A stretch of DNA of 64,000 bases. Origin: Candidatus Omnitrophota bacterium. GTDB lineage: Bacteria > Omnitrophota > Gorgyraeia > Zapsychrales > Aceulaceae. Shown here piece after piece: positions 1 through 16,753 of this stretch (positions within the stretch are counted from its first letter, which is position 1; each line of letters begins with the position of its first letter). The stretch is from the NCBI GenBank assembly GCA_029564765.1, contig JAKQPK010000050.1, forward strand, positions 18,977-82,976, in the 5' to 3' direction. The position numbers and the translations under genes were made by a program. The notes beneath the pieces are model-generated. The model did no database searches, was not told the origin of the DNA, and was given only the letters and a program-made list of their open reading frames with translations.

Positions 1-655
1 CCTCTTGGCCTATTACCTTCTTGCCAGCATGATCCTGATGGTCTTAACCTTGCGCACGCTTGAGCCTCGCGTAGCTTTGTTAGCGGGTCTTTTCTGGGGC
101 CTCATGCCTCTTGCAAAGAATGAAGGAAATGTTTTTCTCTTCTTTTTAACACTCGCAACGTCTATTACCCTTCTCTGGGGTCCACGCGATCAGAGGATAT
201 CCGCAAAACGAATGATCCTTCATCTGCTCATCGGCATCCTATGCACAAGCCTGATGAATATTATTTTTAAAATATTCATGGCTCCCCCGACACGCGAGGT
301 GCTCTTTAATCCCTTAACACAAAATTTAAGCTACTTTAATCTAAACGGTATTTTGACAACGGTCGGTTTCTATTTCTACACGATACGTTCGCCAGGCTGG
401 ATCTTTATCTGGGGGCTTGTATTCATCCTTGGACTTATCAATTATCGTAAATGGTTCGCCCTCAAGGAATCGCGGATCATGGGAATAGTTTTCGCGGGGT
501 TCTTGCTAGTGCTGTTATATGTCTACATCTCAACCGCTCACTTTGATCTTATTTGGCGGCTGCAATGCACGGCGATCAGGATCGCCTTCTACCTTCTTCC
601 ATCCATCCTGTTCTTCTGCTTCTACACTCTCTGGGCCAAAAACCCTAAAAATTAG
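1..655 (+). CDS. Polytopic membrane protein, 5'-truncated by the window edge (C-terminal portion only); function unknown, possibly part of an envelope glycan locus
   Basis: Open frame from window start to TAG at 653-655, with several hydrophobic helices. Its stop overlaps the convergent stop of the minus-strand membrane protein (TTAG). No recognisable catalytic motif. Confidence 0.4.
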   Translation, partial: LLAYYLLASMILMVLTLRTLEPRVALLAGLFWGLMPLAKNEGNVFLFFLTLATSITLLWGPRDQRISAKRMILHLLIGILCTSLMNIIFKIFMAPPTREVLFNPLTQNLSYFNLNGILTTVGFYFYTIRSPGWIFIWGLVFILGLINYRKWFALKESRIMGIVFAGFLLVLLYVYISTAHFDLIWRLQCTAIRIAFYLLPSILFFCFYTLWAKNPKN

Positions 656-2487
656 CGGTAAACTTTATTATCCTTACCTAAATAGCCAGAACTTTCCAAG
701 AATTTAATAAAGGCCTGCCCTTGATGATAAATGGCGTTGATCGAATATCCGCCAAAGAACAGGACAGCATATTTATTGCCCATGTAGATCTTTTCAAGGA
801 TGAAATCCCCTGGCCCGGAAGGAAAATAAGGTGGACGCATAAATGGCGTGTGAACCCCCAACCATACAACCTTTGTAAGATCAAGATTCTCAATGCCGTC
901 AAAATTCTTCACATCCCCATAAAGGCACGGGAACAAATAGATCATAATATCTAGCTTGCGGTCAACAAATCCTATCTGCGGAAAAGCAAGCATTTGCGCA
1001 AAATTAAAAGGCGCAGCTATCGTAAAGTGGTTGTACCGCGCGCTTAAGATCTCACCGATACGCATATGCAATTTGATGTCGTTGCGGTACTCCAAACTTC
1101 TCTCTGAAACACTGTAATCCTCAAGGGGGATCGGTTTGTAGACCATTCCATGGGAGGACAATAACGCGAAAATGATCAGGACGATCAAGGCGCGGTGAGC
1201 GATCTTTTCGTTACGTATTAGACACAATGCGGCCGCCGCAATAGCGACGATCAAAAACGGAAAAAGGATCAAGGTGTAGCGCGGAGGGATCCATAATGAA
1301 TTCGCGAACAAGACAAACCATGCCGCGGCAGCAATGAACATCGTCATGACAATAAAATTCTCTTTCACGAACGAAATTAATCCTGCGCCATACCCGTATG
1401 ATCTTTGTTTGATCGCCCGGCACGCAAAAACAACATAAACAATCGAACTGATAATAAAGAAATACGTAATCGGAAATTGCCTCATTAACGGCCACCCTTG
1501 AAGCGGCCCGACCTTGTCAACCTTACCGGCAGGATTGATGACAAAACAAAGCAGCCAAGCGCCCAAGAGCGCGAACAATATGGCCAAAAACGATGAGAAA
1601 AGGATCGATCTTTTCCCACGCTTTTCTTCATCGAAAAAGAACAAAAACAATCCCGAAACAAATATCGTCGCAGCAGCAAAAAGCGCGTAGATCTTAACGA
1701 ATATCGCTAACCCTGAGAAAATAGCGGCCTTCAGAACATCTTTTTTAGCTAAATAATAGAAAGCTGCTACGATAAAAATCAGAGTGGGAACTTCCATGTT
1801 GATCTGCTCAACCTGACTTTGTGTCAACGGCAAGGACAGGAGCAAGAACGTTAATAAAAAAGACTTGGGAGCATCCCAGATGCGCAGCAGGATCTTGAAA
1901 AACAGCGTCATCACAGCAGCTGAAAAAAGATAGGTAATGCCATGGCTGACGATCAAATACGCTTGGGGCGTAGGCGTGAATTTCATCAACAAAGCCTGAA
2001 AGGCAGGATACAGAGAGAAAAGATAAGCCTTGGGTCCACCGACAATGAACAGAGGTTGTTGTGATAATTTAATAAAATCAAAATTATTCTGCAGAAGCCA
2101 AACAGCTTCCATCATCGGACCGCTGGCAGAATCCCCATAGGGCGGAAATAAAAAAGTTTCCCACCTGCTGACCACAAAATAAACTAAAAAATAAACGAAC
2201 ATCCTTGTGCTGGTCCACTGCGGTAAAAATCTTAGCCCAAGCCAAAGGAATGCCACTGCAGAAGAAAGGATCGAGAGAGGGCCAAAAAATCGATCATCAA
2301 GCTGTCCTATGTAAAACTCAACAGGAAAAAGCTGGCGCGCGCCTGTCAACATACTCAAAAGATCCATGCTGTTGCTCGCATACAATGCGCGGACGATCCA
2401 TCCGCTCGCGAATTTCGCAAGAAAACTGACGCATATAAGCACCGCGAAAGATATCCAAAAAAACGCAGCATCTTTCTTATTTATCAT
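652..2487 (-). CDS. Large polytopic membrane protein (~610 aa): ~400-aa multi-TM N-terminal region plus ~200-aa soluble C-terminal domain; putative GT-C-type glycosyltransferase or polymerase (inference)
   Basis: Long ORF, last gene of the sugar operon. Start re-picked at ATG 2485-2487, which has the SD AGGAGA 6 nt upstream; the track start at 2505 has no SD. Strongly hydrophobic N-terminal region; no soluble-enzyme motifs. Confidence 0.55.
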   Translation of the reverse strand: MINKKDAAFFWISFAVLICVSFLAKFASGWIVRALYASNSMDLLSMLTGARQLFPVEFYIGQLDDRFFGPLSILSSAVAFLWLGLRFLPQWTSTRMFVYFLVYFVVSRWETFLFPPYGDSASGPMMEAVWLLQNNFDFIKLSQQPLFIVGGPKAYLFSLYPAFQALLMKFTPTPQAYLIVSHGITYLFSAAVMTLFFKILLRIWDAPKSFLLTFLLLSLPLTQSQVEQINMEVPTLIFIVAAFYYLAKKDVLKAAIFSGLAIFVKIYALFAAATIFVSGLFLFFFDEEKRGKRSILFSSFLAILFALLGAWLLCFVINPAGKVDKVGPLQGWPLMRQFPITYFFIISSIVYVVFACRAIKQRSYGYGAGLISFVKENFIVMTMFIAAAAWFVLFANSLWIPPRYTLILFPFLIVAIAAAALCLIRNEKIAHRALIVLIIFALLSSHGMVYKPIPLEDYSVSERSLEYRNDIKLHMRIGEILSARYNHFTIAAPFNFAQMLAFPQIGFVDRKLDIMIYLFPCLYGDVKNFDGIENLDLTKVVWLGVHTPFMRPPYFPSGPGDFILEKIYMGNKYAVLFFGGYSINAIYHQGQAFIKFLESSGYLGKDNKVYR

Positions 2488-3952
2488 AAGGCATCTCCTG
2501 ATCATGATATTTTTTAGAAAGAAAAAATGTCCTTACCTTGCACAATAATGGGTTGATCCCAAAAACCTTGACATGAATGAGGAACTGAAAGAAGGAAACT
2601 CTCTCAAAGCGATAGATGTAATAGGAAAAATGGATCATAAATAGTAAATCAAAAATGATCGGAAGGCGCAGTTTTGACAACGAGATCAAAAATCCGCTCA
2701 TCCAAGGAAAGGCAATACATAAGAAATACACCTTCTTTAAGTTCTCGAGCTGATAAGCATCCTTGCCTTTGACGCTCATATCGTGGTGAACGGTTGGCGC
2801 GAATTCTTTTTGGTTGATGGCCTGTGACCGAATATCCGGATGTTGTGTCAACTCCAGCCCGGGATACGCCTGAAAAAAGACCGTCCAAACGTACGCTGGC
2901 TTTAATCGACGATAAAAATCGATCTGAGCCACGTGCGCGTCAAAACTCATTTGCGGCAACCCGAACATCGCGCTTGAAACATACGCGATTTTTTGCGCGC
3001 GCATCCACTCAGCGACTTTAAAAATATCACAATCTTTCACGTGTTTATGCAAAAGGCTTGATCGAACATGCTCATCGCCACTTTCAACAGCAAAGATCAG
3101 ATTGTTCACGCGGGCCTCAGCAAAAAGCTTGATATCGCTTTCTTCAATGGATGTAAAATGAAAATTCGCGCTAAACGGTATGGTAAAATTCTCTTGATAC
3201 ATCTTCAAGAACCGGCGCAGCCAATCCTTTGAGATCCAAAATATTTCATCAGTAAAGAAAATAAATTTAACTTTCTTACGCCGCTTAACCTGATATCTAA
3301 TCTCTTCGATAGCCCGCTCTGGGCTCATTTTGCGGACATATCTGCCGCCTCCGTAATGCTGGCGCAAAAAAGAACTATGACAAAACGCGCAACTCGCCGG
3401 GCATCCTCTTCCTAGAGAAATACGCAAGTACTCACTATGGCGAAAGAATGAGTATTTATCATACATATCACGGTCATAGAACGGCAACGCGTCAAGATCA
3501 ACCAGGTCCGCTGGCATTTCATTTTTAATGATCTGCCCGTTTTCCTTTGCCCATAATCCCTTAATGTGCTGATAGGGCATCTTCGCGTCCAGCTGTGCGC
3601 AGACCTGGGGCAAGACTGTCTCTCCCTCCCAAAGACACACCATATCCACGCATGGTTTTTCAATAATTTCTGGACAAAGCAGTGTGTGAATATTGCCAAA
3701 TATAGTTAAAGCTCTGGTTCGCTGCTTTACCTTGTGAGCGATGCCTAAAAGAAAAGAAACGCTGGGGGTCAAAACGGAAAAACCAACGATATCTGGCTGA
3801 AATCGCTGGACTTCCCCAAGTGTTACATGCTGATTAAAGGGATCACAGTAAAAAACATCAACAGTATGTCCTTGGGCCTTTAAGACCGCAGCCATGGACA
3901 TATAACCGATGCTTTCAACCATAATATCCTGAATGAAAGCAACTCTTGCCAT
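2477..3952 (-). CDS. B12-binding domain radical SAM protein (class B radical SAM, likely C-methyltransferase)
   Basis: N-terminal Rossmann-like cobalamin-binding region (DIVGFSVLTP...), followed by a canonical CX3CX2C motif (GRGCPASCAFC). Confidence 0.8.
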   Translation of the reverse strand: MARVAFIQDIMVESIGYMSMAAVLKAQGHTVDVFYCDPFNQHVTLGEVQRFQPDIVGFSVLTPSVSFLLGIAHKVKQRTRALTIFGNIHTLLCPEIIEKPCVDMVCLWEGETVLPQVCAQLDAKMPYQHIKGLWAKENGQIIKNEMPADLVDLDALPFYDRDMYDKYSFFRHSEYLRISLGRGCPASCAFCHSSFLRQHYGGGRYVRKMSPERAIEEIRYQVKRRKKVKFIFFTDEIFWISKDWLRRFLKMYQENFTIPFSANFHFTSIEESDIKLFAEARVNNLIFAVESGDEHVRSSLLHKHVKDCDIFKVAEWMRAQKIAYVSSAMFGLPQMSFDAHVAQIDFYRRLKPAYVWTVFFQAYPGLELTQHPDIRSQAINQKEFAPTVHHDMSVKGKDAYQLENLKKVYFLCIAFPWMSGFLISLSKLRLPIIFDLLFMIHFSYYIYRFERVSFFQFLIHVKVFGINPLLCKVRTFFLSKKYHDQEMPYDK

Positions 3953-3975
3953 AAAATGATATCTTTTTTTGAAGG

Positions 3976-4899
3976 TTAGAGGCCGATGGTGTACTCGATG
4001 ACAAAGCGAGGCCGCTTACGCGACTCGTCGAATGTGCGCCAAACATATTCCCCCAAGACCCCAAGCATCATCATCTGGATCCCGCCGAGAACAAAAACTG
4101 CGACAATCAACGAAGACCATCCTTGGCCCGGAATGCCAAAGACAAAATAGCGAAAAATGATCCAGCCGGCATACGTAAATCCGGCAAAAGCCGTCAAAAG
4201 CCCAAAAATACTGATATAGCGAACAAGGACATCGCTAAAAGCCAATAGAGAATCTGTCATGAGCTTTAATTTCTTGGCCAAGCTCCAATTTGATCTCCCC
4301 TGGTGTCTGGGCTCCTTGACATACTCAATTGTTTTCTGCGGGAATCCAAGCCAGGCTAATGCCATATAGATCGAAGTGTGCTTTTCTGGCATCTGCTTAA
4401 AGGCTTCGATCACAACGCGATCAACAAGGAATACATCCACACCCAATGCCGGCATTTTGACATCCGTGAGCAGATTGACAAGCCAGTAATATACGCGCGA
4501 GAAAGATCTTACGGACAGGCTTTCCCCTTTTCTTTGTGAGCGCGCGGCCCAAACGATCTTCACTCCTTGATGCCAAACTTCTAGAAGTTTTGCAATAACT
4601 TCAGGAGGATCCTGCAGGTCAGCAGCTAGCGCGACCGCGCAATCTCCTTGCGCATAGCGCAACCCTGCCGCGATCGCCGCATGTCCACCACAGTTACGGG
4701 CAAAACGGATCACTTTCACACGGCTATCCTTTTGGCGCAATGCCTTAAGAATGCTGGGCGTTCGATCAGTGGAACAATCGTCAACGAAAATAAACTCAAA
4801 ACTTTCCTGATCAAGAGAAGCGATCGCATTGATCAAGCGCTGATATAAAGCATCAAGATTGTCCTGTTCGTTATACGCTGGGAAAATTATAGAAATCAT
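3976..4899 (-). CDS. GT2 family polyprenyl-phosphate glycosyltransferase, ArnC/DPM1-like, with C-terminal TM helices
   Basis: N-terminal IIFPAYNE...FIFVDDCSTD GT-A motifs including the DxD-like DDC. ~300 aa with two C-terminal hydrophobic helices, typical of ArnC and GtrB. SD GGAGAGG upstream of the ATG. Confidence 0.8.
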   Translation of the reverse strand: MISIIFPAYNEQDNLDALYQRLINAIASLDQESFEFIFVDDCSTDRTPSILKALRQKDSRVKVIRFARNCGGHAAIAAGLRYAQGDCAVALAADLQDPPEVIAKLLEVWHQGVKIVWAARSQRKGESLSVRSFSRVYYWLVNLLTDVKMPALGVDVFLVDRVVIEAFKQMPEKHTSIYMALAWLGFPQKTIEYVKEPRHQGRSNWSLAKKLKLMTDSLLAFSDVLVRYISIFGLLTAFAGFTYAGWIIFRYFVFGIPGQGWSSLIVAVFVLGGIQMMMLGVLGEYVWRTFDESRKRPRFVIEYTIGL

Positions 4900-4920
4900 A
4901 CACCTCTCCTTTTCATGGGA

Positions 4921-6165
4921 TCAGATCTCAGCAATGGCTTGAACAACGCTGCAAAGTTCTTCTTTCGTTATCTGATAAAAAGCCGGCAAAAGGATCGTCG
5001 TGTCCCTAGCTTTCTCGGTTTCAGGAAGGTTCCAAATACTCGACCGATAAGGTTTCTGACGATGGGCGTTCATGACGCCTGGACGGGTGGCGATCCCTCG
5101 ATCCAAAAGTCGCTGCATGCATTGTTCTTGCGTGACGGGCGCTTGCGGTGTTAAACGCACGGGGAAAGAACCCCAGTTATTGATCGCATACGGGGCTTGA
5201 GAAGGCAATTGAAGCCATGAAATCTTGCTAAGCGCATCCGCATAGAACGCAGCGATCTCTTTTAGCTTTGCCAACAAAAGCGGCAATTTTTTGAGCTGCC
5301 CCAGCCCTATCGACGCCTGGATATCGCTCATGCGGTAATTAAAGCCTGTCACCAAATATTCTTCCAAAATAACCTTGTTCGCCTGATGGCGCGCTAGATC
5401 AGATACACCCATGCCTTGATGACGGAAAAGACGGAAAAAAGAATCATGTGCTGAGTCGTTGGTTGTCAGCATTCCTCCTTCTCCCGTTACAAGGATCTTT
5501 CTCGGATGGAATGAAAAACACGCGATATCCCCATGAGGCTTACCGATCTTCTCAAAAGTCTTTCCTTGGTCAACAGAGATCTCACTTCCGATACCATAAG
5601 CCGCATCTTCGATCACAGGAATGTTGAAACGTTTGGCAAGGGTCAAGATGCGTTCCATCTGACATGGAAAACCCAGCTGATGAACAGCAATGATCGCGGC
5701 AATACGCCCAAGCCGCCTGGAAGGATCACCAGCCATTGACACTAGCGGCGATTCCTCACTTAAAAGATCCTTGACGTGACGATACCATAAACCCTGCGCA
5801 TCGCGTAAACACTCTTGCGTCAAGATCTTTTCCAGATGATCTGGACACATGTTGTAGCCATCTTTTTCCACATCGACAAAAACTGGCTCCGCTGCGCAAT
5901 AGCGCGCGCTGTTTGCTGTTGCGATGAACGAATGACTGACAGTCAAAACAATATCTCCCGGCCTTACGCCGACAGCTAGCAGTGCTAAGTGAAGAGCGGT
6001 CGTACAGCTAGAAACAGCACATGCATGTTTAGCACCCACGAATGAAGCAAATTTATCTTCAAATTCTTTAACGCGTGGCCCCTGCGTGACCCATCCGGAA
6101 AGGATCGCCTGTCGCGCGAGTTCGACCTCATCTTCTGTTAAGAATGGCTTTGTGATCGGGATCAT
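4921..6165 (-). CDS. DegT/DnrJ/EryC1/StrS (ArnB-like) PLP-dependent sugar aminotransferase
   Basis: PITKPFL...EDEVE...AILSGW N-terminus and overall fold-type I sugar aminotransferase pattern. The ATGA start overlaps the stop of the upstream epimerase gene. Confidence 0.85.
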   Translation of the reverse strand: MIPITKPFLTEDEVELARQAILSGWVTQGPRVKEFEDKFASFVGAKHACAVSSCTTALHLALLAVGVRPGDIVLTVSHSFIATANSARYCAAEPVFVDVEKDGYNMCPDHLEKILTQECLRDAQGLWYRHVKDLLSEESPLVSMAGDPSRRLGRIAAIIAVHQLGFPCQMERILTLAKRFNIPVIEDAAYGIGSEISVDQGKTFEKIGKPHGDIACFSFHPRKILVTGEGGMLTTNDSAHDSFFRLFRHQGMGVSDLARHQANKVILEEYLVTGFNYRMSDIQASIGLGQLKKLPLLLAKLKEIAAFYADALSKISWLQLPSQAPYAINNWGSFPVRLTPQAPVTQEQCMQRLLDRGIATRPGVMNAHRQKPYRSSIWNLPETEKARDTTILLPAFYQITKEELCSVVQAIAEI

Positions 6166-7136
6166 AGATTAGTTGTTCCATCAAGCCACTGCGTTAAAAG
6201 CGTCAGTCCTTGCACAAGGTCGACTTTCGCTTTAAACCGTAATGATCTAGCAGCTTTGATCACACTTGCTTTACGACGATAAACCTCGATCTTGCCGCGG
6301 TCGCCAGGAATCGGCATGTACTTCGGTTTAAGCGGAGATCCCATAGAGCGCAACAGTGCTTGGCATAACCCGCTCAAAGATGTCTCCTTGCCGCTTGCGC
6401 AATTAAAGGTTTCACTGCAAACATCAGAGGTTAAAGCCAGGATCGTGGCCCGGGCAACATCTCCCACATAAATGAAATCCATAGTTTGTTTGCCGTCACC
6501 ATAGATCAAGGGCTGTTCTCCCTTACGGATCAAATGATGCCAGCGGACTAAAACCTCGGTATACTTACCGCAAGCATCCATGCGAGGACCGTACACATTG
6601 AAATAGCGGAGAATATTGAATTTCAGTCCATACATTTGAAAGAACGACGCAAGCATGAGCTCATCCGCCATTTTTAAAGCCCCGTAGAATGTCCGGTTGT
6701 TATACGGATGATGATCTTCTTTGGTTGGAAAAGCATCTGCCTGTCCATAAATGGATGCTGTCGATGCGAGAACGATCTTCTGGACCTTGTGTTTAACACA
6801 CGCCTCAAGAATATTATAGGTACCAACAGCGTTCACTTCTAGCGCATGACGGGGTTCCGCCATACATTGAATGATCTTTAAAGAAGCCAGATGAAAACAG
6901 TAATCGATCCCTAAAAATACGCGATCTAAAAGTTCAATATCGCGAATATCACCCTCAATAATCGTGACGCGGCTGCTTGAAAGCGCATGCTGCAGGTTTT
7001 CACGCCTGCCGTGATTAAAATTATCGATGACGACGACTTCTTTTACCTCAGCGACTAACAGTTGATCAACGACATGAGAACCGATACATCCAGCACCCCC
7101 TGTAACAACAACACGCTTTCCCTTAAGTTCATGCAT
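6162..7136 (-). CDS. NAD-dependent epimerase/dehydratase (extended SDR; UDP-sugar dehydratase/decarboxylase/4-epimerase class)
   Basis: VVVTGGAGCIGSHVV glycine-rich NAD motif and a YxxxK context (YGALK). ~320 aa. Its ATG overlaps the ftsA stop by 1 nt (TAATG). Confidence 0.85.
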   Translation of the reverse strand: MHELKGKRVVVTGGAGCIGSHVVDQLLVAEVKEVVVIDNFNHGRRENLQHALSSSRVTIIEGDIRDIELLDRVFLGIDYCFHLASLKIIQCMAEPRHALEVNAVGTYNILEACVKHKVQKIVLASTASIYGQADAFPTKEDHHPYNNRTFYGALKMADELMLASFFQMYGLKFNILRYFNVYGPRMDACGKYTEVLVRWHHLIRKGEQPLIYGDGKQTMDFIYVGDVARATILALTSDVCSETFNCASGKETSLSGLCQALLRSMGSPLKPKYMPIPGDRGKIEVYRRKASVIKAARSLRFKAKVDLVQGLTLLTQWLDGTTNL

Positions 7137-8377
7137 TAGAAATACTCCTGGTAAAGTTCTTTAAGGCGGTATGTGACCTTATGCAACATTGATCCTTGTT
7201 TATACACTTGCGAAAACGGGACAGGAAGACCATCAGTTGCGCGCTGGACAGCCAATCCAATGCATCCAGCATATACAGCTGGATTGTTCAATTGTTTTGT
7301 TTCGATCTGGATCTTTGCGACCTTTGTCGGGACAGAAAATTTTTGCTCCATGGATTCAAGCAATCCGGAGAGTAACGCTCCCCCTCCAACAACAAAAATA
7401 CCCGCACACAGATGATGCTCTAAATCTGCCTGTCGAACTAACTGATGAATTTTTTCAACAAGGGTCATTGCCCATGGCGTCACAACCTGGCAGACACTTT
7501 GACGGTCGATCGTCACATAACTAGCGTCGCGCTTGACCAGGATCTCACCCTTGATCATCGCGCTATCATCGCCGGTCAACACCATCGCGTAGGAACGCTT
7601 GATGTCTTCTGCCAGATCGAACGGAAGGTTCAGTTTACGGCTAATTTCTTCAGTAAGTTGATTGCTGCCGTAATTAAGAATACCTAGATTTTTAAGTACG
7701 CCCTCTTTAAAGATCAGCACGCTTGTCGCTTCAACGCCCATGTCGATGAAGATGCATCCTCTTTTTTTATCATCATCCGCTAGGCAGGCATCCGCTGATC
7801 GCAGCGATGAAAAAGCGACTGTTTTAACATCAAAACCGGCTTGTTGAACTGCCTTGTGAACATTATTGATCAGATTGCTCTGCGCCACCGCGATCAGAAT
7901 ATTCGCCTCGAGTTTACGGCCATGAAGCCCTAAAGGATTAGCCGCCATATTAAATCCATCGACAACATATTGGACCGGAAAATCATGGATCAATTTCTCA
8001 TCCAAATTGATCCCAAGCAAGCAGGCCTGGTGGTTGATCTTCTTAATATCAAAAGTTGTAATAACCTTATTTCCTTTGTCAGCTAAGGGTATGATCGCGT
8101 GTGTTTTTCTATGCTGAATAAAATGTCCGCCTAAACCGATGTGAACATCTTTGAAGTCCAGCTTCGATTTTTCCTTAAGGCCGTTGAGGATGCGGTTTAT
8201 TCCATCAGACACATCTTGCAGGTCGCTAATGGATGATTTTCGAATACCACGGGTTGCAACCTGTGAAATACCGACAATCTCTGGGGCGTGGACATGGTCA
8301 ACGCGCGCCAAGCAGGCTTTAAGCCGGTAAACGCCAAGGTCTAATCCGCAGACAATAGTTTCTTTATTCATCGACAT
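7136..8377 (-). CDS. ftsA: Cell division protein FtsA (actin-like ATPase)
   Basis: ~410 aa with actin/Hsp70-fold motifs (GLDLG..., VVGGGALL). Sits immediately after ftsQ in the dcw cluster. Confidence 0.85.
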   Translation of the reverse strand: MSMNKETIVCGLDLGVYRLKACLARVDHVHAPEIVGISQVATRGIRKSSISDLQDVSDGINRILNGLKEKSKLDFKDVHIGLGGHFIQHRKTHAIIPLADKGNKVITTFDIKKINHQACLLGINLDEKLIHDFPVQYVVDGFNMAANPLGLHGRKLEANILIAVAQSNLINNVHKAVQQAGFDVKTVAFSSLRSADACLADDDKKRGCIFIDMGVEATSVLIFKEGVLKNLGILNYGSNQLTEEISRKLNLPFDLAEDIKRSYAMVLTGDDSAMIKGEILVKRDASYVTIDRQSVCQVVTPWAMTLVEKIHQLVRQADLEHHLCAGIFVVGGGALLSGLLESMEQKFSVPTKVAKIQIETKQLNNPAVYAGCIGLAVQRATDGLPVPFSQVYKQGSMLHKVTYRLKELYQEYF

Positions 8378-9140
8378 ATTTGATCACAGGCTGGGCAAAA
8401 CGTAGATCAATATAACGGATACGTTCCCAATCTAATCTTGCTTTGTTGAGAATGAGGCTCAACGTCTCGATCTGCTTATCAATAGATTCTCGATCTGCAA
8501 CGACCTCTAGCTTCTCCCCAATGAAAAAAATGATTTTTGAAGTATTCTCGACGTTAATACGCATAATATGAAATGAACCTGAAATAGAATTTTTCTGGAA
8601 GACATCAATAATGTTGAGAGCTATCTTCAAATTCTGATTATCAATAATTTGACCCATGGGCACTGTTTTCGGACGCGCCACGCCATGAACAAGAGGTAGC
8701 ATAACGTTAAAGAAATCATTTGGGACAGTAACATATCCTTGACGATCAACAACAAAACGCTGATCGTTAAAAACAACGATCGCAAAAGGAGGACGGTCTT
8801 TTAGATCAACATAGATCTCATCCGGAAACCGCTTCATAATACGAATATCTTTTGCCTCTGGAAAAAGTCGGGTCAATTGCTTCTGCAACCCGACAAGATC
8901 GACCGAAAAAATGCTCTGGTCGCGTAAATATCCGAAACGCTTCAATTCTTGTGCTTTCGAGGGCGCTGAACACGTGATCTTCTTGATGCGGAAATATGAA
9001 GAATTTGCGACCCATGCCGCTGTGCTGCGCATGATCAAGAAGCAAAAGAAACCAAAGAACAATAAAGTTAAAAGCGGCCGCAAAATAGGGAAGCCTTGCG
9101 ATGAACGGGGTCTTATTGATTTCTTAATTTTCTGGCTCAT
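8364..9140 (-). CDS. ftsQ: Cell division protein FtsQ/DivIB (N-terminal TM helix plus POTRA domain)
   Basis: Single N-terminal TM helix followed by a POTRA-like region; position between ddl and ftsA. Confidence 0.75.
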   Translation of the reverse strand: MSQKIKKSIRPRSSQGFPILRPLLTLLFFGFFCFLIMRSTAAWVANSSYFRIKKITCSAPSKAQELKRFGYLRDQSIFSVDLVGLQKQLTRLFPEAKDIRIMKRFPDEIYVDLKDRPPFAIVVFNDQRFVVDRQGYVTVPNDFFNVMLPLVHGVARPKTVPMGQIIDNQNLKIALNIIDVFQKNSISGSFHIMRINVENTSKIIFFIGEKLEVVADRESIDKQIETLSLILNKARLDWERIRYIDLRFAQPVIKYVDE

Positions 9141-10095
9141 ATGCTAATCGCACAAGATTAAGACAAAGATTCTTAAAATCGATACCTATCGCAGAAGCGG
9201 CTTTAGGCAAAAGACTGGTTGCGGTCATGCCGGGGATCGTGTTGATCTCCAAGACCCATGGAATATTATTCTCATCTAAAAGAAGATCCACCCGCGACAG
9301 ATGTCGACACCCAATGCTACGATGAACCCGCCAAGCGATCTGTTGAACCTGCTGGGCGATAACAGGATCGATCTCCGCCGGAACAATATACTCGGTCATG
9401 CCGGCTTGATATTTTGCCTTATAGTCAAAAAAAGGATTTTTGGGTCTTATCTCAACAACTGGTAAAAGTGTATTGCCTAAAATGCCAGCTGTCAATTCTT
9501 TTCCATGAATATACGCCTCGATCAATATTTGATCACCATAAGAAAACGCATCTTGAACCGCAAGAGATAGTTGCTGATGATCTGCCACGATGGTCACTCC
9601 AAAGCTCGAGCCTTCGCTGACCGGCTTGACCACAACCGGCTTTCCAGCAAAAACCGATCTTACCTCCTCTTTGATCTTCTTTTCATCCGATCTATTAAAC
9701 GCAAGGAATGAAGGGACACGGACATGGTTTTCGCGCAAGAGCTGATACGTTGAAAGCTTATCCATAGCGGTCCTGCTGGCTGCGGCATCTGATCCTGTGT
9801 AAGGTATCTGAATACTATCCAAAATCTCTTGGATCCTTCCATCCTCACCAAAACGCCCATGCAGCGCGATAAACGCGATATCAATCTTGGAAGCCTTCAC
9901 AAGCGTGATGATATCCGCAGGGTTCTCCGTTGAGATCTCCAGGGATGACACTCGACATCCGGCCTCGGTCAACGCCTTAACAACACCCGTTCCGGATTTG
10001 ATGGAGATCTCTTTCTCGGAAGAACACCCTCCCATAAGAACACCAACATGCTTCTCAAGGACCCTAGACAATTGCTCTTCTGTCATTTTTATCAT
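9124..10095 (-). CDS. ddl: D-alanine--D-alanine ligase
   Basis: ATP-grasp motifs (IALHGRFGEDG..., EINTIPGMT) and ~320 aa length. Confidence 0.9.
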   Translation of the reverse strand: MIKMTEEQLSRVLEKHVGVLMGGCSSEKEISIKSGTGVVKALTEAGCRVSSLEISTENPADIITLVKASKIDIAFIALHGRFGEDGRIQEILDSIQIPYTGSDAAASRTAMDKLSTYQLLRENHVRVPSFLAFNRSDEKKIKEEVRSVFAGKPVVVKPVSEGSSFGVTIVADHQQLSLAVQDAFSYGDQILIEAYIHGKELTAGILGNTLLPVVEIRPKNPFFDYKAKYQAGMTEYIVPAEIDPVIAQQVQQIAWRVHRSIGCRHLSRVDLLLDENNIPWVLEINTIPGMTATSLLPKAASAIGIDFKNLCLNLVRLAYEPEN

Positions 10096-10104
10096 TTTCC
10101 AGAG

Positions 10105-11460
10105 CTACCTTTCCATGCCCGCCATGATATCTTTTATTATCTGGTTGATATTACCGGCACCCAAGGTGATGACCAAGTCCCCCGGCTGCGCAACAGCGCG
10201 AACATGGTCGGCGATCTGGTCATAATGAAGATAGACGACAGGGCGTCCTTCACGGTCCTTTAACTGTTGGTACAAGACAGGGGCGCCAACACCGACAATA
10301 GGCTCCTCGCTGGCCGCATAAACATCGGTCAAAACAAGGTAGTCGCAATTCTGCAAACTTGCAATGAATTCTTTTTGAAGGAATTTTAGCCTTGAAAAAC
10401 GATGCGGTTGAAAGATCGCGATCACGCGCTTGCGGCGCAGCAATCGTGCCGCGGCCAATGTTGCCTGGACCTCAGTCGGATGATGCGCATAATCATCGAT
10501 AAATAAAATATCATTGATCTCGCCTCGACGCGTAAAACGTCGTTGAACGCCAGAAAAATCCTTTAAACTTTTTTGAACGAGCGCAAAGTCAAGATTGATC
10601 AACCGAGACAGAGCGACAGCCGCTAACGCGTTGGCAATATTATGCCTGCCTAGAACACGCAATTCTATAGCTCCCAGACATACGCCTCGCTCATAACATA
10701 GAAAGCGCGCGTCCCCTTGATCAAAACAGATATCCTCTGCCATCAGATCATTACCCGCGGAAAGTCCATAAGTTATGTTTGGGATCTTTTTCTGCTGAAT
10801 CAATTTTCTTAGATTGACATCATCTCCGCAAACGATCAAGGATCCCTGAGGATGGGTCTGGCCTAAAAATTGAGCGTAGGCTCCCATCATGTTGTCCCAG
10901 GTCTTGTAATATTCCATATGCTCAAAATCGATGTTCGTCACAATAGAATAAAAAGGATGAAAATGCAGGAATGATCCATCGCTTTCATCCACTTCCGCCA
11001 CACAATACTCTCCTTGCCCAAGGTCAGCGCTCATGTCCCCATTGTTCATGATGCCTCCAACGGCAAGCGTAGGCCGCAAACCAGCATCACGTAACACACA
11101 GCTGACCATCGATGTGGTAGTTGTTTTGCCATGAGCTCCGGCAACCGCGATCAATCTTTTTTCGGCCATAACCTCTGCTAAAAGTTTCGCTCGATGCACA
11201 ATACTAATACCCTTCGCTCTTGCTTGCTGCAACTCAGGGTTGTCAGTATTGATCGCTGAAGAGAAAACAATACAATCCGGGCGTTGAACATTTTCTTTTT
11301 TATGCCCTATCGTGATCTCTGCTCCTTTTGCGCGCAGCCGCGATGTCAAAAGATTATCCTTAAGATCAGAGCCGCTGATCTTGTGTCCTTTTTCCTGCAA
11401 CAAGCTTGCCAGCGTTCCCATGCCAATACCGCCAATGCCGATAAAATGGTAGTGCTTCAT
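10105..11460 (-). CDS. murC: UDP-N-acetylmuramate--L-alanine ligase
   Basis: FIGIGGIGM N-terminus and the Mur ligase P-loop GAHGKTTTTS. Start chosen at ATG 11458-11460, which forms an ATGA overlap with the stop of the upstream peptidase gene. Confidence 0.9.
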   Translation of the reverse strand: MKHYHFIGIGGIGMGTLASLLQEKGHKISGSDLKDNLLTSRLRAKGAEITIGHKKENVQRPDCIVFSSAINTDNPELQQARAKGISIVHRAKLLAEVMAEKRLIAVAGAHGKTTTTSMVSCVLRDAGLRPTLAVGGIMNNGDMSADLGQGEYCVAEVDESDGSFLHFHPFYSIVTNIDFEHMEYYKTWDNMMGAYAQFLGQTHPQGSLIVCGDDVNLRKLIQQKKIPNITYGLSAGNDLMAEDICFDQGDARFLCYERGVCLGAIELRVLGRHNIANALAAVALSRLINLDFALVQKSLKDFSGVQRRFTRRGEINDILFIDDYAHHPTEVQATLAAARLLRRKRVIAIFQPHRFSRLKFLQKEFIASLQNCDYLVLTDVYAASEEPIVGVGAPVLYQQLKDREGRPVVYLHYDQIADHVRAVAQPGDLVITLGAGNINQIIKDIMAGMER

Positions 11461-12239
11461 TTCTTCAAATACCCCATCCACGCCTTATTGAGATCATCGA
11501 TCGTCTGAAAACGATAATACGCTTTTTCCAAAGCATCTTCGAACCTAAGACCCTTCTTTAAGTTCTGACAAAAATTCAAGAATTTAAATGCCCCATGCTC
11601 TGTGATCAAATACCGAATGACGCTGGCAGATTCCGCGTAAAATAAATTCACGACCTCCCGATCGGTCGCGGATGTAAGCCTTGTCCGGCCAAGCTCTGAG
11701 AGAGGAATAAAACGATTTTCTGCGATCGCTTTTCTTACTTCATCATCGGCTCCCCAGCGCTTCGCTTTTTCTTGATACATCGCCACCCCCTCATCCACCC
11801 ATAGAGGAAGATCAGAGGAAACCCCAACATATTCCCTGAAAATGATATGCCCAAGTTCGTGCGGCAACAAGGAGTCAAAAAATCCGTGCGCCGCTGGATA
11901 CGTCTGGATCGCTCGCGACCCTATTCTCGTCGAAGCGCTCGACCAACCCGCCTGACGGGAAGAAACAAGATAATCATCTTCGTTGTCATAGATGTAAATT
12001 TGGGCTCGATCATCCCATGTCCATAGCTGATCCCTGCTAAAACCAAGATCCTTAACAATGCTGTAATAATATCCCTCCGCTGATTCTTCGACAGCCTTTA
12101 TGAATTCCTTAGGTGCGTTCTTGTAATAAATAATAAAATGCCGGCTACGATTTTCTTTCCAGTTTTGAGCAGCCATAGCATAGCTGGAAAAAAAGATCAT
12201 AAATAAAATATTTATTATAACGATCTTCTTTATTATCAT
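11457..12239 (-). CDS. Secreted zinc metallopeptidase, Peptidase_MA (gluzincin)-like, inserted in the dcw cluster
   Basis: N-terminal signal peptide (MIIKKIVIINILFMIFFSSYAMAAQ). An HELGH (HExxH) motif is followed about 20 aa later by EGVAMYQE, the gluzincin third-ligand Glu pattern. ATGA overlaps with murG upstream and murC downstream. Confidence 0.6.
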   Translation of the reverse strand: MIIKKIVIINILFMIFFSSYAMAAQNWKENRSRHFIIYYKNAPKEFIKAVEESAEGYYYSIVKDLGFSRDQLWTWDDRAQIYIYDNEDDYLVSSRQAGWSSASTRIGSRAIQTYPAAHGFFDSLLPHELGHIIFREYVGVSSDLPLWVDEGVAMYQEKAKRWGADDEVRKAIAENRFIPLSELGRTRLTSATDREVVNLFYAESASVIRYLITEHGAFKFLNFCQNLKKGLRFEDALEKAYYRFQTIDDLNKAWMGYLKK

Positions 12240-13306
12240 AACAAAGATACGATCTCTTCAGCGATGCGCAAAGCGGGCTTTACAGCATTCGGACCAGAGC
12301 CCTGTGCTGGCACATTTTTTGATGGATACAATTTTAACCGCCTTATAGTTTCATCAGCCAGGCTTTGGGCTGTGCACATCTCATCCGTTATCATCGTCGC
12401 CAAGCCTTGCTCACAGACAATCTCAGCGTTTTCTTTTTGGTGAACACGCACTAAAGGATACGGGATCAGTATAGCTGACTTCTGAAAGCTTAGGATCTCA
12501 CAGACCGTTGCTGCCCCTGAGCGCGCCACGACAAGGTCCGCGATCGCATAAGCGGATTGAACATCATCCAGAAAATCAAAAAGCTGATACGGAATCTTTA
12601 GCGATCGATATCGAAATTGAAGGTCCTGATGATCCGCGCTGCCGCAAACATGAATGAATTGGAACATAATCTTTTCGTTCAGCAGCTCAACCGCCTGAGA
12701 GAACGCCACATTGATCCTACGACTTCCCTGGCTTCCCCCAAGGACAAAGATCGTTTGCCGTTGAGGTGAAAGCTGAAATTGTTGATAGATCTCCTCTTTT
12801 GATTTTGCTGATGGGGTGTCCCGGCAGGGACATCCGGTCAAAACGGTCTTTGATGAACGAAAGTGATCTTCGCTCTTCTTAAAGCTGATCGCTATCTTAT
12901 TTACAAAATTCTTTAAGACCCGATTTGACCATGACGGGACCACGTTCTGATCGTGGATCAAGGTCGGCTTTCGCTTTATGATCGCGGCTACCACGACTGG
13001 AAACGCGCCATATCCCCCAAAACCAACAACAACGTCTGGGCCAATATCCTGAATCAATACGCACGCCTGATAAATAGCGTACACCATTTGAAATCCCTCT
13101 TTTATCGCACTAAAAGCAGAGACGAGCTTCATGCGCACCGAGGCTATCACCCAAGCCTGAAAATGATGCCTACGCACAAGATCGAACGCAAGGCCCTGGG
13201 TCGTTAAAAAAACAACTTCGTGTCCCTGGTCGACAAGCACCTTGGCCGTTTCTAGGGCCGGAAAAACATGCCCCCCGCTGCCTCCTGCGCCGATCATGAT
13301 TCTCAT
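12236..13306 (-). CDS. murG: Undecaprenyl-PP-MurNAc-pentapeptide-UDP-GlcNAc GlcNAc transferase
   Basis: IGAGGSGGHVFPA N-terminal GT28 motif; ~355 aa. Confidence 0.9.
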   Translation of the reverse strand: MRIMIGAGGSGGHVFPALETAKVLVDQGHEVVFLTTQGLAFDLVRRHHFQAWVIASVRMKLVSAFSAIKEGFQMVYAIYQACVLIQDIGPDVVVGFGGYGAFPVVVAAIIKRKPTLIHDQNVVPSWSNRVLKNFVNKIAISFKKSEDHFRSSKTVLTGCPCRDTPSAKSKEEIYQQFQLSPQRQTIFVLGGSQGSRRINVAFSQAVELLNEKIMFQFIHVCGSADHQDLQFRYRSLKIPYQLFDFLDDVQSAYAIADLVVARSGAATVCEILSFQKSAILIPYPLVRVHQKENAEIVCEQGLATMITDEMCTAQSLADETIRRLKLYPSKNVPAQGSGPNAVKPALRIAEEIVSLL

Positions 13307-13312
13307 ATTTAC

Positions 13313-14398
13313 CTACGCTAGATCCTGTACACGAGAAATGTTCAACAAAAGACCGATGCAGATCATCTGAACGACCAGCGCTGATCCTCCATAGCTGACG
13401 AATGGCAACGGCAATCCTTTTGTTGGAAAAGCCCCAATACTAACACCGATATTGATAACGGCCTGAAGCGCTATGACCGCCACGATCCCTAGGGCTAAAA
13501 AATATCCAAAAGGGTCTTCGCAGCGTTTGGCAATACGCGCCCCCTGCCAGATCAACAGCGTAAAAAGAACAATGACCGAAACTGTCCCAAAGAGGCCTAA
13601 TTCCTCACCGATGATCGATAAAATAAAATCCGTATGCGCGGCTGGAAGATAATATAGCTTTTGAACACTTTTTCCTAAGCCAACGCCTAAAAGCCCTCCA
13701 GAGCCTAAGGCGATCTGAGACTGGACCAGCTGAAATCCGGCCCCTTGCTGATCTTTCCAAGGGTCTAAAAATGCCTGGATACGTCTTAAACGATACGGTG
13801 TTTTCGCGATCAGATAGACTAGCGCTGGCAAACTTAAGAAGCCGACAAGGCTCATGTGCCATAGTTTTGCACCAGCAACGAACATCATGATAAAAATAAC
13901 AGCTGCGATCAAAGCCGTTGTTCCAAGGTCAGGCTGCTTAAGGATCAGAAGACAGACAGCCCCCAGCGCCATCATGATCGGCATGAAACCCAAAAAGAAA
14001 TTTTGTATCTTTTCTCGTTTCCTAGACAAAAAATCCGCTGTATAAATGATCATCGCGATCTTTGTCAGTTCAGATGGCTGAAAGCTAAATCCAAAGAACT
14101 GAAACCAACGTTTTGCCCCATAAACTTCACGGCCTGCCACAAGAACAAGCAAGAGAGATGCCAGCGAACACAAAAAGATCGGTTTCGCATATTTTGCTAG
14201 CAAGCGATAATCGACGAGCATCGCCATGATCATCGCGCAAAGTCCTGCCATTAAATAAAATAAATGCCGCCTGAGAAAATACGTACTTGATCCCAGCTCG
14301 CGCAGCGCAAAAACACTGCTGGCGCTGAAGACCATGACAACACCCAAGGCCACCAAGACCATCGTAATGACAGCGATTGAAATTCTGATCTCGCGCAT
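13313..14398 (-). CDS. ftsW: Lipid II flippase / peptidoglycan glycosyltransferase FtsW (SEDS family)
   Basis: ~10-TM SEDS profile with C-terminal PLPFVSYGGSA motif; dcw context. Confidence 0.85.
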   Translation of the reverse strand: MREIRISIAVITMVLVALGVVMVFSASSVFALRELGSSTYFLRRHLFYLMAGLCAMIMAMLVDYRLLAKYAKPIFLCSLASLLLVLVAGREVYGAKRWFQFFGFSFQPSELTKIAMIIYTADFLSRKREKIQNFFLGFMPIMMALGAVCLLILKQPDLGTTALIAAVIFIMMFVAGAKLWHMSLVGFLSLPALVYLIAKTPYRLRRIQAFLDPWKDQQGAGFQLVQSQIALGSGGLLGVGLGKSVQKLYYLPAAHTDFILSIIGEELGLFGTVSVIVLFTLLIWQGARIAKRCEDPFGYFLALGIVAVIALQAVINIGVSIGAFPTKGLPLPFVSYGGSALVVQMICIGLLLNISRVQDLA

Positions 14399-14401
14399 AA
14401 A

Positions 14402-15667: not shown

Positions 15668-16753
15668 TTATCTTATCTTGATAGTTGTCAGGGTAAGCAA
15701 CGCGAGAATGATCGCGATGATCCAGAAACGAACAATGATCTTAGACTCATTCCACCCTAAAAGTTGTAAATGATGATGAAAAGGAGACATTTTAAAGATA
15801 CGCTTACCCCGCGTCTTCACGGAAAGGACCTGCAAAATAACGGATAGTGCCTCCCAGACAAAAATGCCACCTAGCAGGATCAATAGGATTTCTTTCTTGA
15901 TAAAAACCGCTATCGCTCCTAACGTCCCACCGAGTGCCAAAGAGCCGACATCCCCCATAAAAATCGAGGCAGGATAACAATTGAACCATAAAAAACCAAG
16001 GCTCGCGCCAAGGATCGCGGCACAGACAACCGTCAACTCACCTGTTCCCGGGATAAATGGAAGGAACAAATATTCCGCGAACTTAAAATTACCCGAGATA
16101 TAGCTCAACGCCCCTAAACCAAGAGCGACAAATAAAACGCAGCCGATCGCTAACCCATCAAGCCCGTCCGTCAAATTGACAGCGTTAGAGCAGCTCATCA
16201 CGATCAAGGCTGCCCAGAGAATGAAAAAGATATCAAGATAAAGGATAGTAGATTTTAAGAAAGGGATATCCAAGCGCGTTGTTGTATCCGGAGCGAGAAA
16301 GACGAAAAATCCTACCACGCACCCTAAGACGAATTGCCAAAAAAGTTTTGTCCCTCCGGAAAGACCGCGATGACCTTTTTGGCAGATCTTCAAATAATCA
16401 TCAATGAAGCCCAGCACCGCAAGGGTTGACATTGTCAAGATCGACAAGAGAACATATAGATTAGACAGATCTGCCCACAAAAAAAGCGCGGATAAAATGC
16501 TGAGGACAATAAAAATGCCCCCCATTGTCGGCGTGCTCTGTTTGTATTTCTGGACCTCTGAAAGGGCCTGACAGTAGTCCCTATCAACACCTTCTTTAAC
16601 TTCATCTTTCTGGAATTTCCGGATGAAGATAGGCGCTAAGATCAAGCAAAGAAAAAAAGATGTAAAAGCCGCGGCGCCCGAACGAAAAGTGATGTAGCGA
16701 AAGATATTAAGAAAAGAAAAGGAATCTCGAAATCCGGATAAGAAATACAGCAT
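15668..16753 (-). CDS. mraY: Phospho-N-acetylmuramoyl-pentapeptide transferase
   Basis: Polytopic membrane protein with the MraY signature; ~360 aa. Confidence 0.9.
   Translation of the reverse strand: MLYFLSGFRDSFSFLNIFRYITFRSGAAAFTSFFLCLILAPIFIRKFQKDEVKEGVDRDYCQALSEVQKYKQSTPTMGGIFIVLSILSALFLWADLSNLYVLLSILTMSTLAVLGFIDDYLKICQKGHRGLSGGTKLFWQFVLGCVVGFFVFLAPDTTTRLDIPFLKSTILYLDIFFILWAALIVMSCSNAVNLTDGLDGLAIGCVLFVALGLGALSYISGNFKFAEYLFLPFIPGTGELTVVCAAILGASLGFLWFNCYPASIFMGDVGSLALGGTLGAIAVFIKKEILLILLGGIFVWEALSVILQVLSVKTRGKRIFKMSPFHHHLQLLGWNESKIIVRFWIIAIILALLTLTTIKIR

Follow-up and report, generated by a model that had tools for sequence, protein, structure and literature searches.

A candidate amino-sugar glycosylation module coupled to ftsA at the end of the division and cell-wall gene cluster of a Candidatus Omnitrophota bacterium

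Five genes downstream of ftsA

The window analysed here is a stretch of 64,000 nucleotides from a Candidatus Omnitrophota bacterium (assembly GCA_029564765.1, contig JAKQPK010000050.1, positions 18,977 to 82,976). Near its left edge, five chained open reading frames (ORFs) encode, in reading order, an extended short-chain dehydrogenase/reductase (SDR), a DegT-family sugar aminotransferase, a GtrB/ArnC-type family 2 glycosyltransferase (GT2), a cobalamin-binding radical S-adenosylmethionine (SAM) enzyme and a polytopic membrane protein of the GT-C glycosyltransferase fold (Table 1). We consider these five genes as a candidate module for lipid-carrier glycosylation. A prediction made from the sequence alone (the original prediction) had called the same ORFs at the same coordinates, and all five are confirmed on the minus strand. 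For four of them (aminotransferase, ArnC-like GT2, B12-radical SAM enzyme and GT-C-like membrane protein), Pfam and the further comparisons below also uphold the family that the prediction had assigned.

The tight coupling of the genes noted in the original prediction is real, with small corrections. The SDR and aminotransferase genes share ATGA at 6162-6165 (4-nt overlap). The next two gaps measure 21 nt (with a ribosome-binding site, GGAGAGG) and 23 nt, instead of 22 and 24 nt. The radical SAM and GT-C genes overlap by 11 nt if the latter starts at ATG 2487, a start preceded by an AGGAG site and giving 611 aa, which fits the lengths of the homologues (604-611 aa). The sequence TAATG at 7136, a 1-nt overlap, had been counted among the junctions of the five genes; it instead couples the SDR gene to ftsA, a gene that the original prediction did not mention.

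This places the module within the division and cell wall (dcw) cluster. From mraZ (23103) to position 652 there runs a single co-directional array of 19 genes, in which no gap exceeds 65 nt apart from one of 403 nt containing an FtsL-like ORF. Its genes keep the canonical dcw order up to ftsA: mraZ, mraW, ftsL (here the FtsL-like ORF), PBP3, murE, murF, mraY, murD, ftsW, murG, murC, ddl, ftsQ, ftsA, with a Peptidase_MA_2 gene (11457-12239) inserted between murG and murC and overlapping both. The five genes are the last five cistrons of this array and lie in the slot usually held by ftsZ, which in dcw clusters normally comes after ftsA. A promoter/terminator scan of positions 1-9000 counted no more signals than expected from shuffled sequence and thus showed no break between ftsA and the module.

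Table 1. Features of the window and of loci compared with it (rSAM, radical SAM enzyme; TM, transmembrane; PLP, pyridoxal phosphate; locus numbers are those of the comparative survey)
Feature	Position	Strand	Details
Window: second GT-C, PMT_2-type, convergent; C-terminal ~216 aa, cut by window edge	5..655	+	~454 aa full-length in relatives
Window: polytopic GT-C-fold glycosyltransferase, putative periplasmic transferase	652..2487	-	611 aa; alternative ATG 2505 gives 617 aa
Window: class-B cobalamin-binding radical SAM enzyme, accessory tailoring	2477..3952	-	491 aa; Pfam B12-binding + Radical_SAM
Window: GtrB/ArnC-type GT2, polyprenyl-phosphate glycosyltransferase	3976..4899	-	307 aa; Pfam Glycos_transf_2; two C-terminal TM helices
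Window: DegT/DnrJ/EryC1-family PLP sugar aminotransferase	4921..6165	-	414 aa; Pfam PF01041 308 bits
Window: extended SDR, GalE-like, 4-epimerase-type active site	6162..7136	-	324 aa; first gene of module; Pfam Epimerase 183 bits
Window: ftsA, last canonical dcw gene	7136..8377	-	NCBIfam TIGR01174 236 bits, cutoff 176; stop codon overlaps SDR start
Window: rest of dcw array upstream of ftsA	8364..23103	-	Pfam and junction lengths
Window: ArnT-like GT83/GT39 protein	54652-56331	-	559 aa; PMT/PMT_2 domains
Window: NodB-family deacetylase	56324-57055	-	Polysacc_deac_1; 8-nt overlap with ArnT-like gene
L060, Phycisphaerales CP070691.1	1713256-1730800		Hexapep, GFO, DegT, GT2, rSAM, SDR, Hexapep; rSAM 47%, SDR 48% identical to the window's
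L061, Hydrogenedens			neighbours rSAM-DegT
L143			neighbours rSAM-rSAM-GT2-DegT, with WbqC and formyltransferases
L145			neighbours rSAM-YfhO
L062, L144			rSAM then class-I methyltransferase

No FtsZ/tubulin domain was found among the ORFs of at least 150 aa in the window, and a tblastn search with an E. coli FtsZ query, run with no positive control, gave no match in the window or in loci L001-L059. Neither the dcw cluster nor the 64-kb window contains murB. Since Omnitrophota are reported to have FtsZ and a well-conserved dcw gene set (PMC5147048, PMC12283558), ftsZ is probably located elsewhere in this genome.

The closest homologues of the membrane protein are in metagenome-assembled genomes (MAGs) of Candidatus Omnitrophota, one of them a 100%-identical partial NCBI entry. 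A scan with one genome per GTDB species yielded 53 GT-C loci, all in Omnitrophota MAGs (some labelled "uncultured Planctomycetales"), and the window proteins were mapped onto the ORFs of these loci and onto precomputed gene tables. The adjacency of ftsA and the SDR gene recurs in L003, L004, L005, L007, L008 and L010, and in all ftsA-linked loci the two genes either overlap by 1 nt or lie 2-17 nt apart. Three of these loci (L003, L004 and L005) also carry the Peptidase_MA_2 insertion. Because the same order is kept in at least six other genomes, at a GT-C identity of 43% to 94%, the arrangement is more than chance.

Enzyme families of the module

The SDR matches the Pfam families Epimerase/GDP_Man_Dehyd, and its best PDB matches are the 4-epimerases 6dnt and 4zrm, next to which come WbgU and WbpP. 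Its active-site motifs ASTASIYG and YGALK are kept as AS[ST]AS[IV]YG and YGAxK in 14 of 14 orthologues, all of which read T-A-S (or S-A-S), the catalytic Thr being followed by neither D-E nor E. The 4,6-dehydratases carry T-D-E or T-S-E at this place, and the UXS/ArnA decarboxylases T-S-E. The lack of Asp-Glu after the catalytic Thr led us to reject a 4,6-dehydratase, and the replacement of Glu by Ser a UDP-glucuronic acid (UDP-GlcA) decarboxylase, both across the 14 orthologues. The original prediction had spoken of an SDR dehydratase and had proposed to decide between these two classes. The catalytic motifs disfavour both and are of the GalE/WbpP type. The NCBIfam scores are 48 bits for ArnA (cutoff 777) and 144 bits for RmlB (cutoff 365).

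The aminotransferase retains the Schiff-base lysine in an SFHPRK motif. Its NCBIfam matches, all below the cutoffs, are PseC (287 bits), the LegC family (251) and ArnB (233, cutoff 631); among solved structures ArnB is the best relative (187 bits), followed by perosamine synthase (175 bits).

The GT2 aligns over its full length to the polyisoprenyl-phosphate glucosyltransferase GtrB (5ekp, 224 bits) and ArnC (9bhc, 135 bits), and hydrophobic segments at residues ~217-249 and 252-286 form a C-terminal TM hairpin. PgfS is the best NCBIfam match (221 bits), ahead of ArnC (166 bits, cutoff 529), both being below cutoff. Judged by these alignments, the protein is a member of the GtrB/ArnC superfamily without being an ArnC equivalog.

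A predicted structure of the 611-aa membrane protein, built from 37 homologues, has a pLDDT of 91 and a pTM of 0.91. Two invariant acidic/polar loop motifs, FPPYGD(119)SASGP and SQxE(227)QIN(230)ME(232), characterize the family. The sole Pfam match is GT87, at 21 bits (cutoff 25). Membership of GT87/PF09594 (PimE-like) was rejected, the score being below the gathering threshold and PimE being a poor structural match. A profile search of 1.84 billion cluster representatives returned 470 with E-values of 1e-30 or better; these ~470 clusters are clusters at 50% identity. A second tier of shorter relatives (~490-560 aa) occurs in Latescibacterota, Gemmatimonadota and Kiritimatiellia, all annotated "hypothetical", with Pfam matches absent or sub-threshold. 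The 611-aa protein is a GT-C enzyme whose family is undescribed and to which Pfam, CAZy and NCBIfam give no assignment.

Other GT-C proteins accompany it. A PMT_2-type GT-C gene (the one cut by the window edge) and a gene for a ~140-160-aa single-TM protein with no Pfam match lie convergent to the operon in every ftsA-linked locus (L008 11833-13676, minus strand). The full-length homologue in L008 (11833-13197) matches PMT_2 at 31 bits. Both proteins may belong to the same glycosylation system. L007 (8139-11830) has two tandem GT-C paralogues, scoring 305 and 644 bits against the window protein, the extra copy being in the radical SAM slot.

The radical SAM enzyme exceeds the Pfam thresholds for both of its domains (B12-binding PF02310, 47 bits, threshold 32; Radical_SAM PF04055, 42 bits, threshold 29.5). 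The cluster C184-x3-C188-x2-C191 is invariant in the homologue alignment, and a hydrophobic C-terminal helical bundle (~399-478) is conserved. An AF2 model (pLDDT 90.6) searched with Foldseek matches MgmA, TsrM, CysS, AprD4, TokK and OxsB at TM-scores of 0.6-0.67, at an identity to any solved member of at most 18% and with all NCBIfam equivalog cutoffs missed. Motif, B12-binding domain and modelled fold agree in making it a class-B cobalamin-dependent enzyme. With the methyltransferases of this class (TsrM, TokK, CysS, MgmA) it shares the N-terminal B12-binding Rossmann domain, the CxxxCxxC barrel and the fold. It differs in its partners, which are GT2, DegT and GT-C envelope genes instead of antibiotic or cofactor clusters. 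GenK and GenD1 are sugar C-methylases among the class-B cobalamin radical SAM methyltransferases.

The enzyme might do something other than methylate, namely catalyse a radical deoxygenation, dehydration or rearrangement of the sugar as AprD4 or OxsB do, and we regard this as a possible though less probable reading. No solved enzyme matches better than AprD4 (TMq 0.67), a 1,2-diol dehydratase whose substrate is an amino sugar, and OxsB is also among the top matches (TMq 0.65). With an SDR devoid of dehydratase residues, any deoxygenation would need another enzyme. Against it stand the B12-binding domain above the Pfam threshold and the prevalence of methyltransferases among class-B relatives, by fold (MgmA, TsrM, CysS, TokK) as well as by NCBIfam (PhpK, HpnR, KedN5, BzaD and others). 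In addition, the sister operons L005, L010 and L007 do without the gene, which points to a decoration and not a core step, and in the second module type described below a class-I methyltransferase fills the analogous accessory place.

MAGs labelled Hydrogenedentes, Phycisphaerales and Acidimicrobiales contain homologues of the radical SAM enzyme at 45-50% identity, and so do metagenome contigs that bear no label. These homologues recur beside DegT, GT2, SDR or YfhO genes in Phycisphaerales, in a Hydrogenedens MAG and in two unassigned contigs (Table 1). A link to genes of amino-sugar and lipid-carrier glycosylation is thus seen repeatedly, though not in every case. Because the Planctomycetota genome of L060 carries it, the sugar-making part of the module is common to different phyla of the PVC (Planctomycetes-Verrucomicrobia-Chlamydiae) group. 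A GT-C of the window family is not present in L060, where a TPR protein comes next instead. The 634-aa protein of L060 (this TPR protein) and the 681-aa protein of L061 were rejected as GT-C relatives at an hhalign probability below 1%. A metagenome scan with patterns from the radical SAM alignment gave, among the matches listed, only distant B12-radical SAM genes (at most 33% identity), and a full-text literature search returned no related paper linking cobalamin radical SAM with undecaprenyl, aminotransferase and glycosyltransferase.

Related modules and the distant ArnT-like/NodB pair

The 53 loci fall into two types of module. Type A, the amino-sugar type, has the order SDR, aminotransferase, (hexapeptide acetyltransferase), GT2, (B12-radical SAM), GT-C, parentheses marking genes that vary. 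Its ftsA-linked members are the window, L003/L009 (Ca. Aceula meridiana), L004, L005/L019, L007, L008 and L010 (Ca. A. lacicola); among them the radical SAM gene is found only in the window, L003, L004 and L008, and the acetyltransferase in L003, L005 and L010. Fuller gene sets occur in type A modules with no dcw linkage (L011, L015, L016, L018, L033, L054, L057). There a GFO_IDH_MocA dehydrogenase gene lies upstream of the SDR gene, mostly directly (in L015 with one membrane-protein gene between), and a formyltransferase (Formyl_trans_N+C) or acetyltransferase follows the aminotransferase, the Formyl_trans domain being present in L016, L018, L033 and L057. Between GT2 and GT-C come a 127-aa EamA/SMR transporter (after GT2 in L011, L015, L016 and L057), a CN-hydrolase and a PP-loop-like protein. 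The complete trio is found in L011, L016 and L057 (for example L057 7562-9975), with a CN-hydrolase of 279 aa and a ~390-aa protein that has a weak NAD_synthase/PP-loop match. Although outside the NodB family, the CN-hydrolase could stand in functionally for the ArnD deacylase. The GFO dehydrogenase gene is absent from the window and from every ftsA-linked locus.

Type B, to which the majority of loci belong, has the order GT-C, a more distant GtrB-like GT2, a class-I methyltransferase and sometimes YfhO. In both types the pair of GT2 and GT-C is the conserved core: the GT-C gene adjoins or nearly adjoins a GtrB-type GT2 gene in ~40 of the 53 loci, the remainder being mostly short or truncated contigs. 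Such a constant core is the signature of three-component extracytoplasmic glycosylation (PMC11127046), and the fuller relatives encode a complete Arn-like chain with its own transferase.

This core bears on the view that the SDR, aminotransferase and GT2 merely serve a conventional cytoplasmic O-antigen or capsule repeat unit and that their place in the dcw cluster is meaningless, which we consider very improbable. DegT aminotransferases and extended SDRs are indeed typical of O-antigen loci, and Omnitrophota have long mixed co-directional arrays, such as those of L048 and L052, in which a tRNA synthetase gene lies amid glycosylation genes. However, the GT2 is of the membrane-anchored GtrB/ArnC type and not of a polymer-building one, its gene stands beside or near the GT-C gene as counted above, and the operon has no gene for Wzx, Wzy, an ABC transporter or an initiating phosphoglycosyltransferase. 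The conservation of the ftsA junction down to 43% GT-C identity also argues against a meaningless position.

About 50 kb from the module lies the pair of genes that the original prediction had joined to it as the remote half of a split Arn pathway. The pair is real and has PMT/PMT_2 and Polysacc_deac_1 domains (Table 1). For the ArnT-like protein, ArnT is both the only PDB sequence match (5ezm, 85 bits, with the PDE motif aligned) and the sole NCBIfam match (153 bits, cutoff 567). The deacetylase, which had been called ArnD-like, scored with no ArnD model or structure; it matches the PdaB, NodB and PgdA models and the structures of PgdA, PdaC and chitin deacetylase, enzymes of peptidoglycan and chitin. 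It has a single N-terminal TM segment (residues 1-32) followed by RR...KKK, and by the positive-inside rule its catalytic domain may be cytoplasmic, unlike that of the secreted PgdA/PdaB-type enzymes.

Orthologues of the ArnT-like protein occur throughout the phylum, with more than 120 matches at 46-99% identity, a wider and better conserved distribution than that of the operon GT-C. They are also found on contigs whose GT-C is part of a type B module; examples are P0172 (1.6-Mb contig of L001) and P0225 (contig of L023). In Ca. Aceula meridiana ~45 kb separate the pair from the operon, and the surrounding gene order is that of the window (YchF-DUF4139-iPGM-NodB-ArnT-GGDEF-S15-PNPase-FtsK). 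Because this housekeeping synteny is shared, the ~50-kb separation reflects inherited chromosome order and not a functional split. In L048 and L052 the pair stands ~1.7 kb downstream of a paralogous GT-C/GT2/methyltransferase (type B) module, a Gln/Glu-tRNA synthetase gene lies between the two, and a PEMT/ICMT-like membrane methyltransferase comes after the pair. A tie of the pair to type B modules (L047, L048, L052) was rejected, since the tRNA synthetase gene intervenes and the three loci are probably one arrangement.

According to the split-pathway proposal, the operon would make an undecaprenyl-phosphate amino sugar, the distant NodB protein would deacylate it and the distant ArnT-like protein would transfer it to lipid A, the operon GT-C being auxiliary or engaged in something different. 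We find this decidedly unlikely. The exclusive ArnT matches speak for it, as do the lack in the window of a GT2 gene near the pair, the presence of both loci on one contig in Ca. Aceula meridiana, the proximity to a paralogous module in L048 and L052, and the putatively cytoplasmic catalytic domain of the NodB protein, such as an ArnD-type step would need. The operon, however, already encodes a GT-C transferase, and its SDR is devoid of UDP-GlcA decarboxylase residues. It has no formyl- or acetyltransferase, so nothing would be left to deacylate. The NodB protein resembles peptidoglycan and chitin deacetylases instead of ArnD. The pair sits in conserved housekeeping synteny, is cut off by the tRNA synthetase gene even where it comes close to a module, and, with ArnT-like orthologues (46-78% identity) spread over the phylum and accompanying the methyltransferase-type module as well, shows no specific co-distribution with the operon. 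We judge the pair to be a separate, phylum-wide unit for which no specific tie to the operon was found. It may draw on some GT2-made donor, and it is because of this, and because the NodB protein may face the cytoplasm, that we leave the split model a small weight.

Proposed pathway, acceptor and relation to known systems

We favour the reading that the five genes, as the last cistrons of the dcw array, form a self-contained lipid-carrier glycosylation module of the three-component type, comparable to Gtr, Arn, Lgm and Pgf, and consider it probable. In the cytoplasm, the GalE-like SDR and the DegT-family aminotransferase would turn a nucleotide sugar into an amino sugar. The dehydrogenase that forms the keto sugar, of the GFO/WbpB/GnnA type that lies beside the SDR in the relatives, would be encoded elsewhere in this genome, or the SDR itself would release the keto intermediate. 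The GtrB/ArnC-type GT2 would then load the sugar from its nucleotide onto undecaprenyl phosphate on the inner face of the membrane. The cobalamin radical SAM enzyme would modify the sugar, most likely by C-methylation, a step that is optional because sister operons are without the gene. After flipping, the 611-aa GT-C protein would take the sugar off its lipid carrier on the periplasmic side and attach it to an acceptor in the envelope. The general idea of the original prediction, an amino sugar on undecaprenyl phosphate transferred at the periplasmic face, is in this way retained, and the extra genes of the relatives strengthen its Arn-like logic.

Several points weigh against this pathway. 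The SDR is epimerase-like, which leaves the window operon with no obvious keto-sugar-forming step to serve the aminotransferase. Whether the amine sits at C-3 or C-4 is ambiguous: C-4 enzymes give the aminotransferase its best scores, and its partner in the relatives is a GFO dehydrogenase. In known pathways (WbpB/WbpE, GnnA/GnnB), GFO dehydrogenases make 3-keto sugars. Methylation is proposed on family precedent, and the structural match to AprD4, a sugar diol-dehydratase, is just as good. The window operon contains no flippase gene, and the periplasmic placement of the conserved Asp119 loop is putative. Finally, the enzyme activities, the sugar and the acceptor of all members, and with them every chemical step and the donor sugar, are what we infer from things seen directly, that is, gene presence, junctions, folds and families, gene order and accessory variation.

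The resemblance to the Arn pathway (PmrHFIJKLM; ArnA/B/C/D/T/E/F), which modifies lipid A with L-Ara4N, lies in its logic, in which a nucleotide amino sugar is loaded by a GT2 onto undecaprenyl phosphate and transferred by a GT-C enzyme at the periplasmic face. The ArnB-like aminotransferase and the full-length ArnC alignment of the GT2 fit it, and operon relatives have a formyltransferase, an SMR/EamA transporter and a hydrolase in the positions of the ArnA N-terminal domain, ArnE/F and ArnD. There are differences as well. The SDR carries no UDP-GlcA decarboxylase signature, and the window operon is without formyltransferase, deformylase and flippase; no Formyl_trans domain was found in the window ORFs of at least 150 aa, in agreement with the original prediction, which had seen no ArnA-type formyltransferase. 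Every Arn equivalog cutoff of NCBIfam is missed widely, the transferase is a GT-C of a family other than that of ArnT, and the hydrolase of the relatives is a CN-hydrolase and not NodB/ArnD. The cobalamin radical SAM enzyme and the fusion to ftsA set the module further apart.

With the Gtr systems (GtrA/GtrB/GtrV; three-component systems, Kelly et al. 2024, PMC11127046), in which a GT-C enzyme modifies a finished envelope glycan outside the cytoplasm, the module shares a GtrB-type GT2 beside a GT-C. It differs in its donor, an amino sugar from dedicated SDR and aminotransferase genes in place of UDP-glucose, in having no GtrA, MATE or SMR flippase gene in the window operon, in a GT-C that belongs to no described family and in the extra radical SAM step.

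A third group, which adds hexosamines to lipid A or the cell wall, comprises Bordetella LgmABC, Francisella FlmF2/NaxD/FlmK and mycobacterial PpgS/Rv3779, where an ArnC-like GT2 loads an N-acetylhexosamine on polyprenyl phosphate and a deacetylase and a GT-C follow. The distant NodB and ArnT-like pair of the window resembles the LgmC/LgmB part of such a system. Systems of this kind start from UDP-N-acetylhexosamine itself and do not require an SDR, an aminotransferase or a radical SAM enzyme; moreover, the pair and the operon show neither adjacency nor specific co-distribution. The kind of system seen here, lipid-carrier three-component glycosylation with Arn-like logic, is a known one; it is no split Arn pathway. 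New in it are the GT-C family, the class-B radical SAM enzyme as a module accessory, and the conserved translational coupling to ftsA at the 3' end of a dcw cluster with neither ftsZ nor murB.

As to the acceptor, lipopolysaccharide, in its lipid A or core, is our leading candidate, though with well under an even chance. Peptidoglycan or a peptidoglycan-linked glycan comes close behind, envelope proteins rank lower and any other acceptor lowest. Ca. Aceula is placed in Omnitrophota, within the PVC group, and we presume that the host of the window, as a PVC-group bacterium, is diderm. Co-transcription with the dcw genes is compatible with a role directed at peptidoglycan or the divisome. Position beside the dcw genes alone is weak evidence of function, since Omnitrophota also show mixed housekeeping arrays.

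A protein acceptor would explain the ftsA linkage: the same machinery would O-glycosylate periplasmic divisome and peptidoglycan-synthesis proteins, in the manner of the streptococcal Pgf/GtrB-PgtC2 system. Targets of that system include divisome and peptidoglycan-synthesis proteins, and its GtrB/PgfS and GT-C enzymes glycosylate PBP1a, FtsQ, MapZ and RodZ (PMC11092751). The counterpart of its enzyme pair here would be the operon GT-C and the convergent PMT_2-type neighbour, which is conserved beside the operon, and PgfS is the best NCBIfam match of the GT2 (221 bits). On the other hand, Pgf has no aminotransferase or radical SAM enzyme, its host is a Firmicute, and the proteins of the 64-kb window, including FtsQ, PBP3, FtsW and a RodZ-like protein, have no Ser/Thr-rich disordered tail that could serve as an acceptor (maximum Ser+Thr content 40% per 25 residues). 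We hold this variant to be unlikely.

A more far-reaching idea is that the amino-sugar module became part of the division and cell-wall operon in one Omnitrophota clade, translationally coupled to ftsA in the place of ftsZ, and may add a radical-SAM-modified amino sugar to lipid II, septal peptidoglycan or divisome proteins. We put it forward as a long shot; if the module did act on the division or peptidoglycan machinery, it would be a growth-coupled envelope modification with no described counterpart. On this idea, there may also be a connection with a relocation or loss of ftsZ in the lineage. The unusual dcw cluster itself, without ftsZ and murB and with a peptidase and a glycosylation module added, bears on the evolution of division clusters in the PVC superphylum. 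Omnitrophota are an uncultured PVC-group phylum whose envelope chemistry is barely known, and the locus is a conserved candidate for an amino-sugar modification of that envelope. If the sugar ended as a cationic group on lipid A, the module would be an Arn-like resistance determinant built from different parts. Through the radical SAM family, which in several phyla is repeatedly tied to genes for lipid-carrier sugars, the tailoring of sugars by radical SAM enzymes would reach beyond antibiotics to envelopes.

Some other features of the window may be recorded. The YchF GTPase ORF (60502-61851, minus strand, TTG start) overlaps the upstream GAF/HD-GYP ORF (61577-63028, minus strand) by 275 nt; its Pfam match starts at residue 94, so that the listed start is probably too far upstream. 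An ORF of 1678 aa (39319-44355, minus strand) with no Pfam match and with a hydrophobic segment near its N-terminus sits in a patch of low GC (0.37-0.41; the rest of the window has 0.43-0.49). A riboflavin operon (34528-39259, minus strand) consists of ribD, ribE, a PHP-domain gene, ribBA and ribH. The sole RNA gene found in the window is a tRNA-Pro(CGG) at 31921-31996 on the minus strand.

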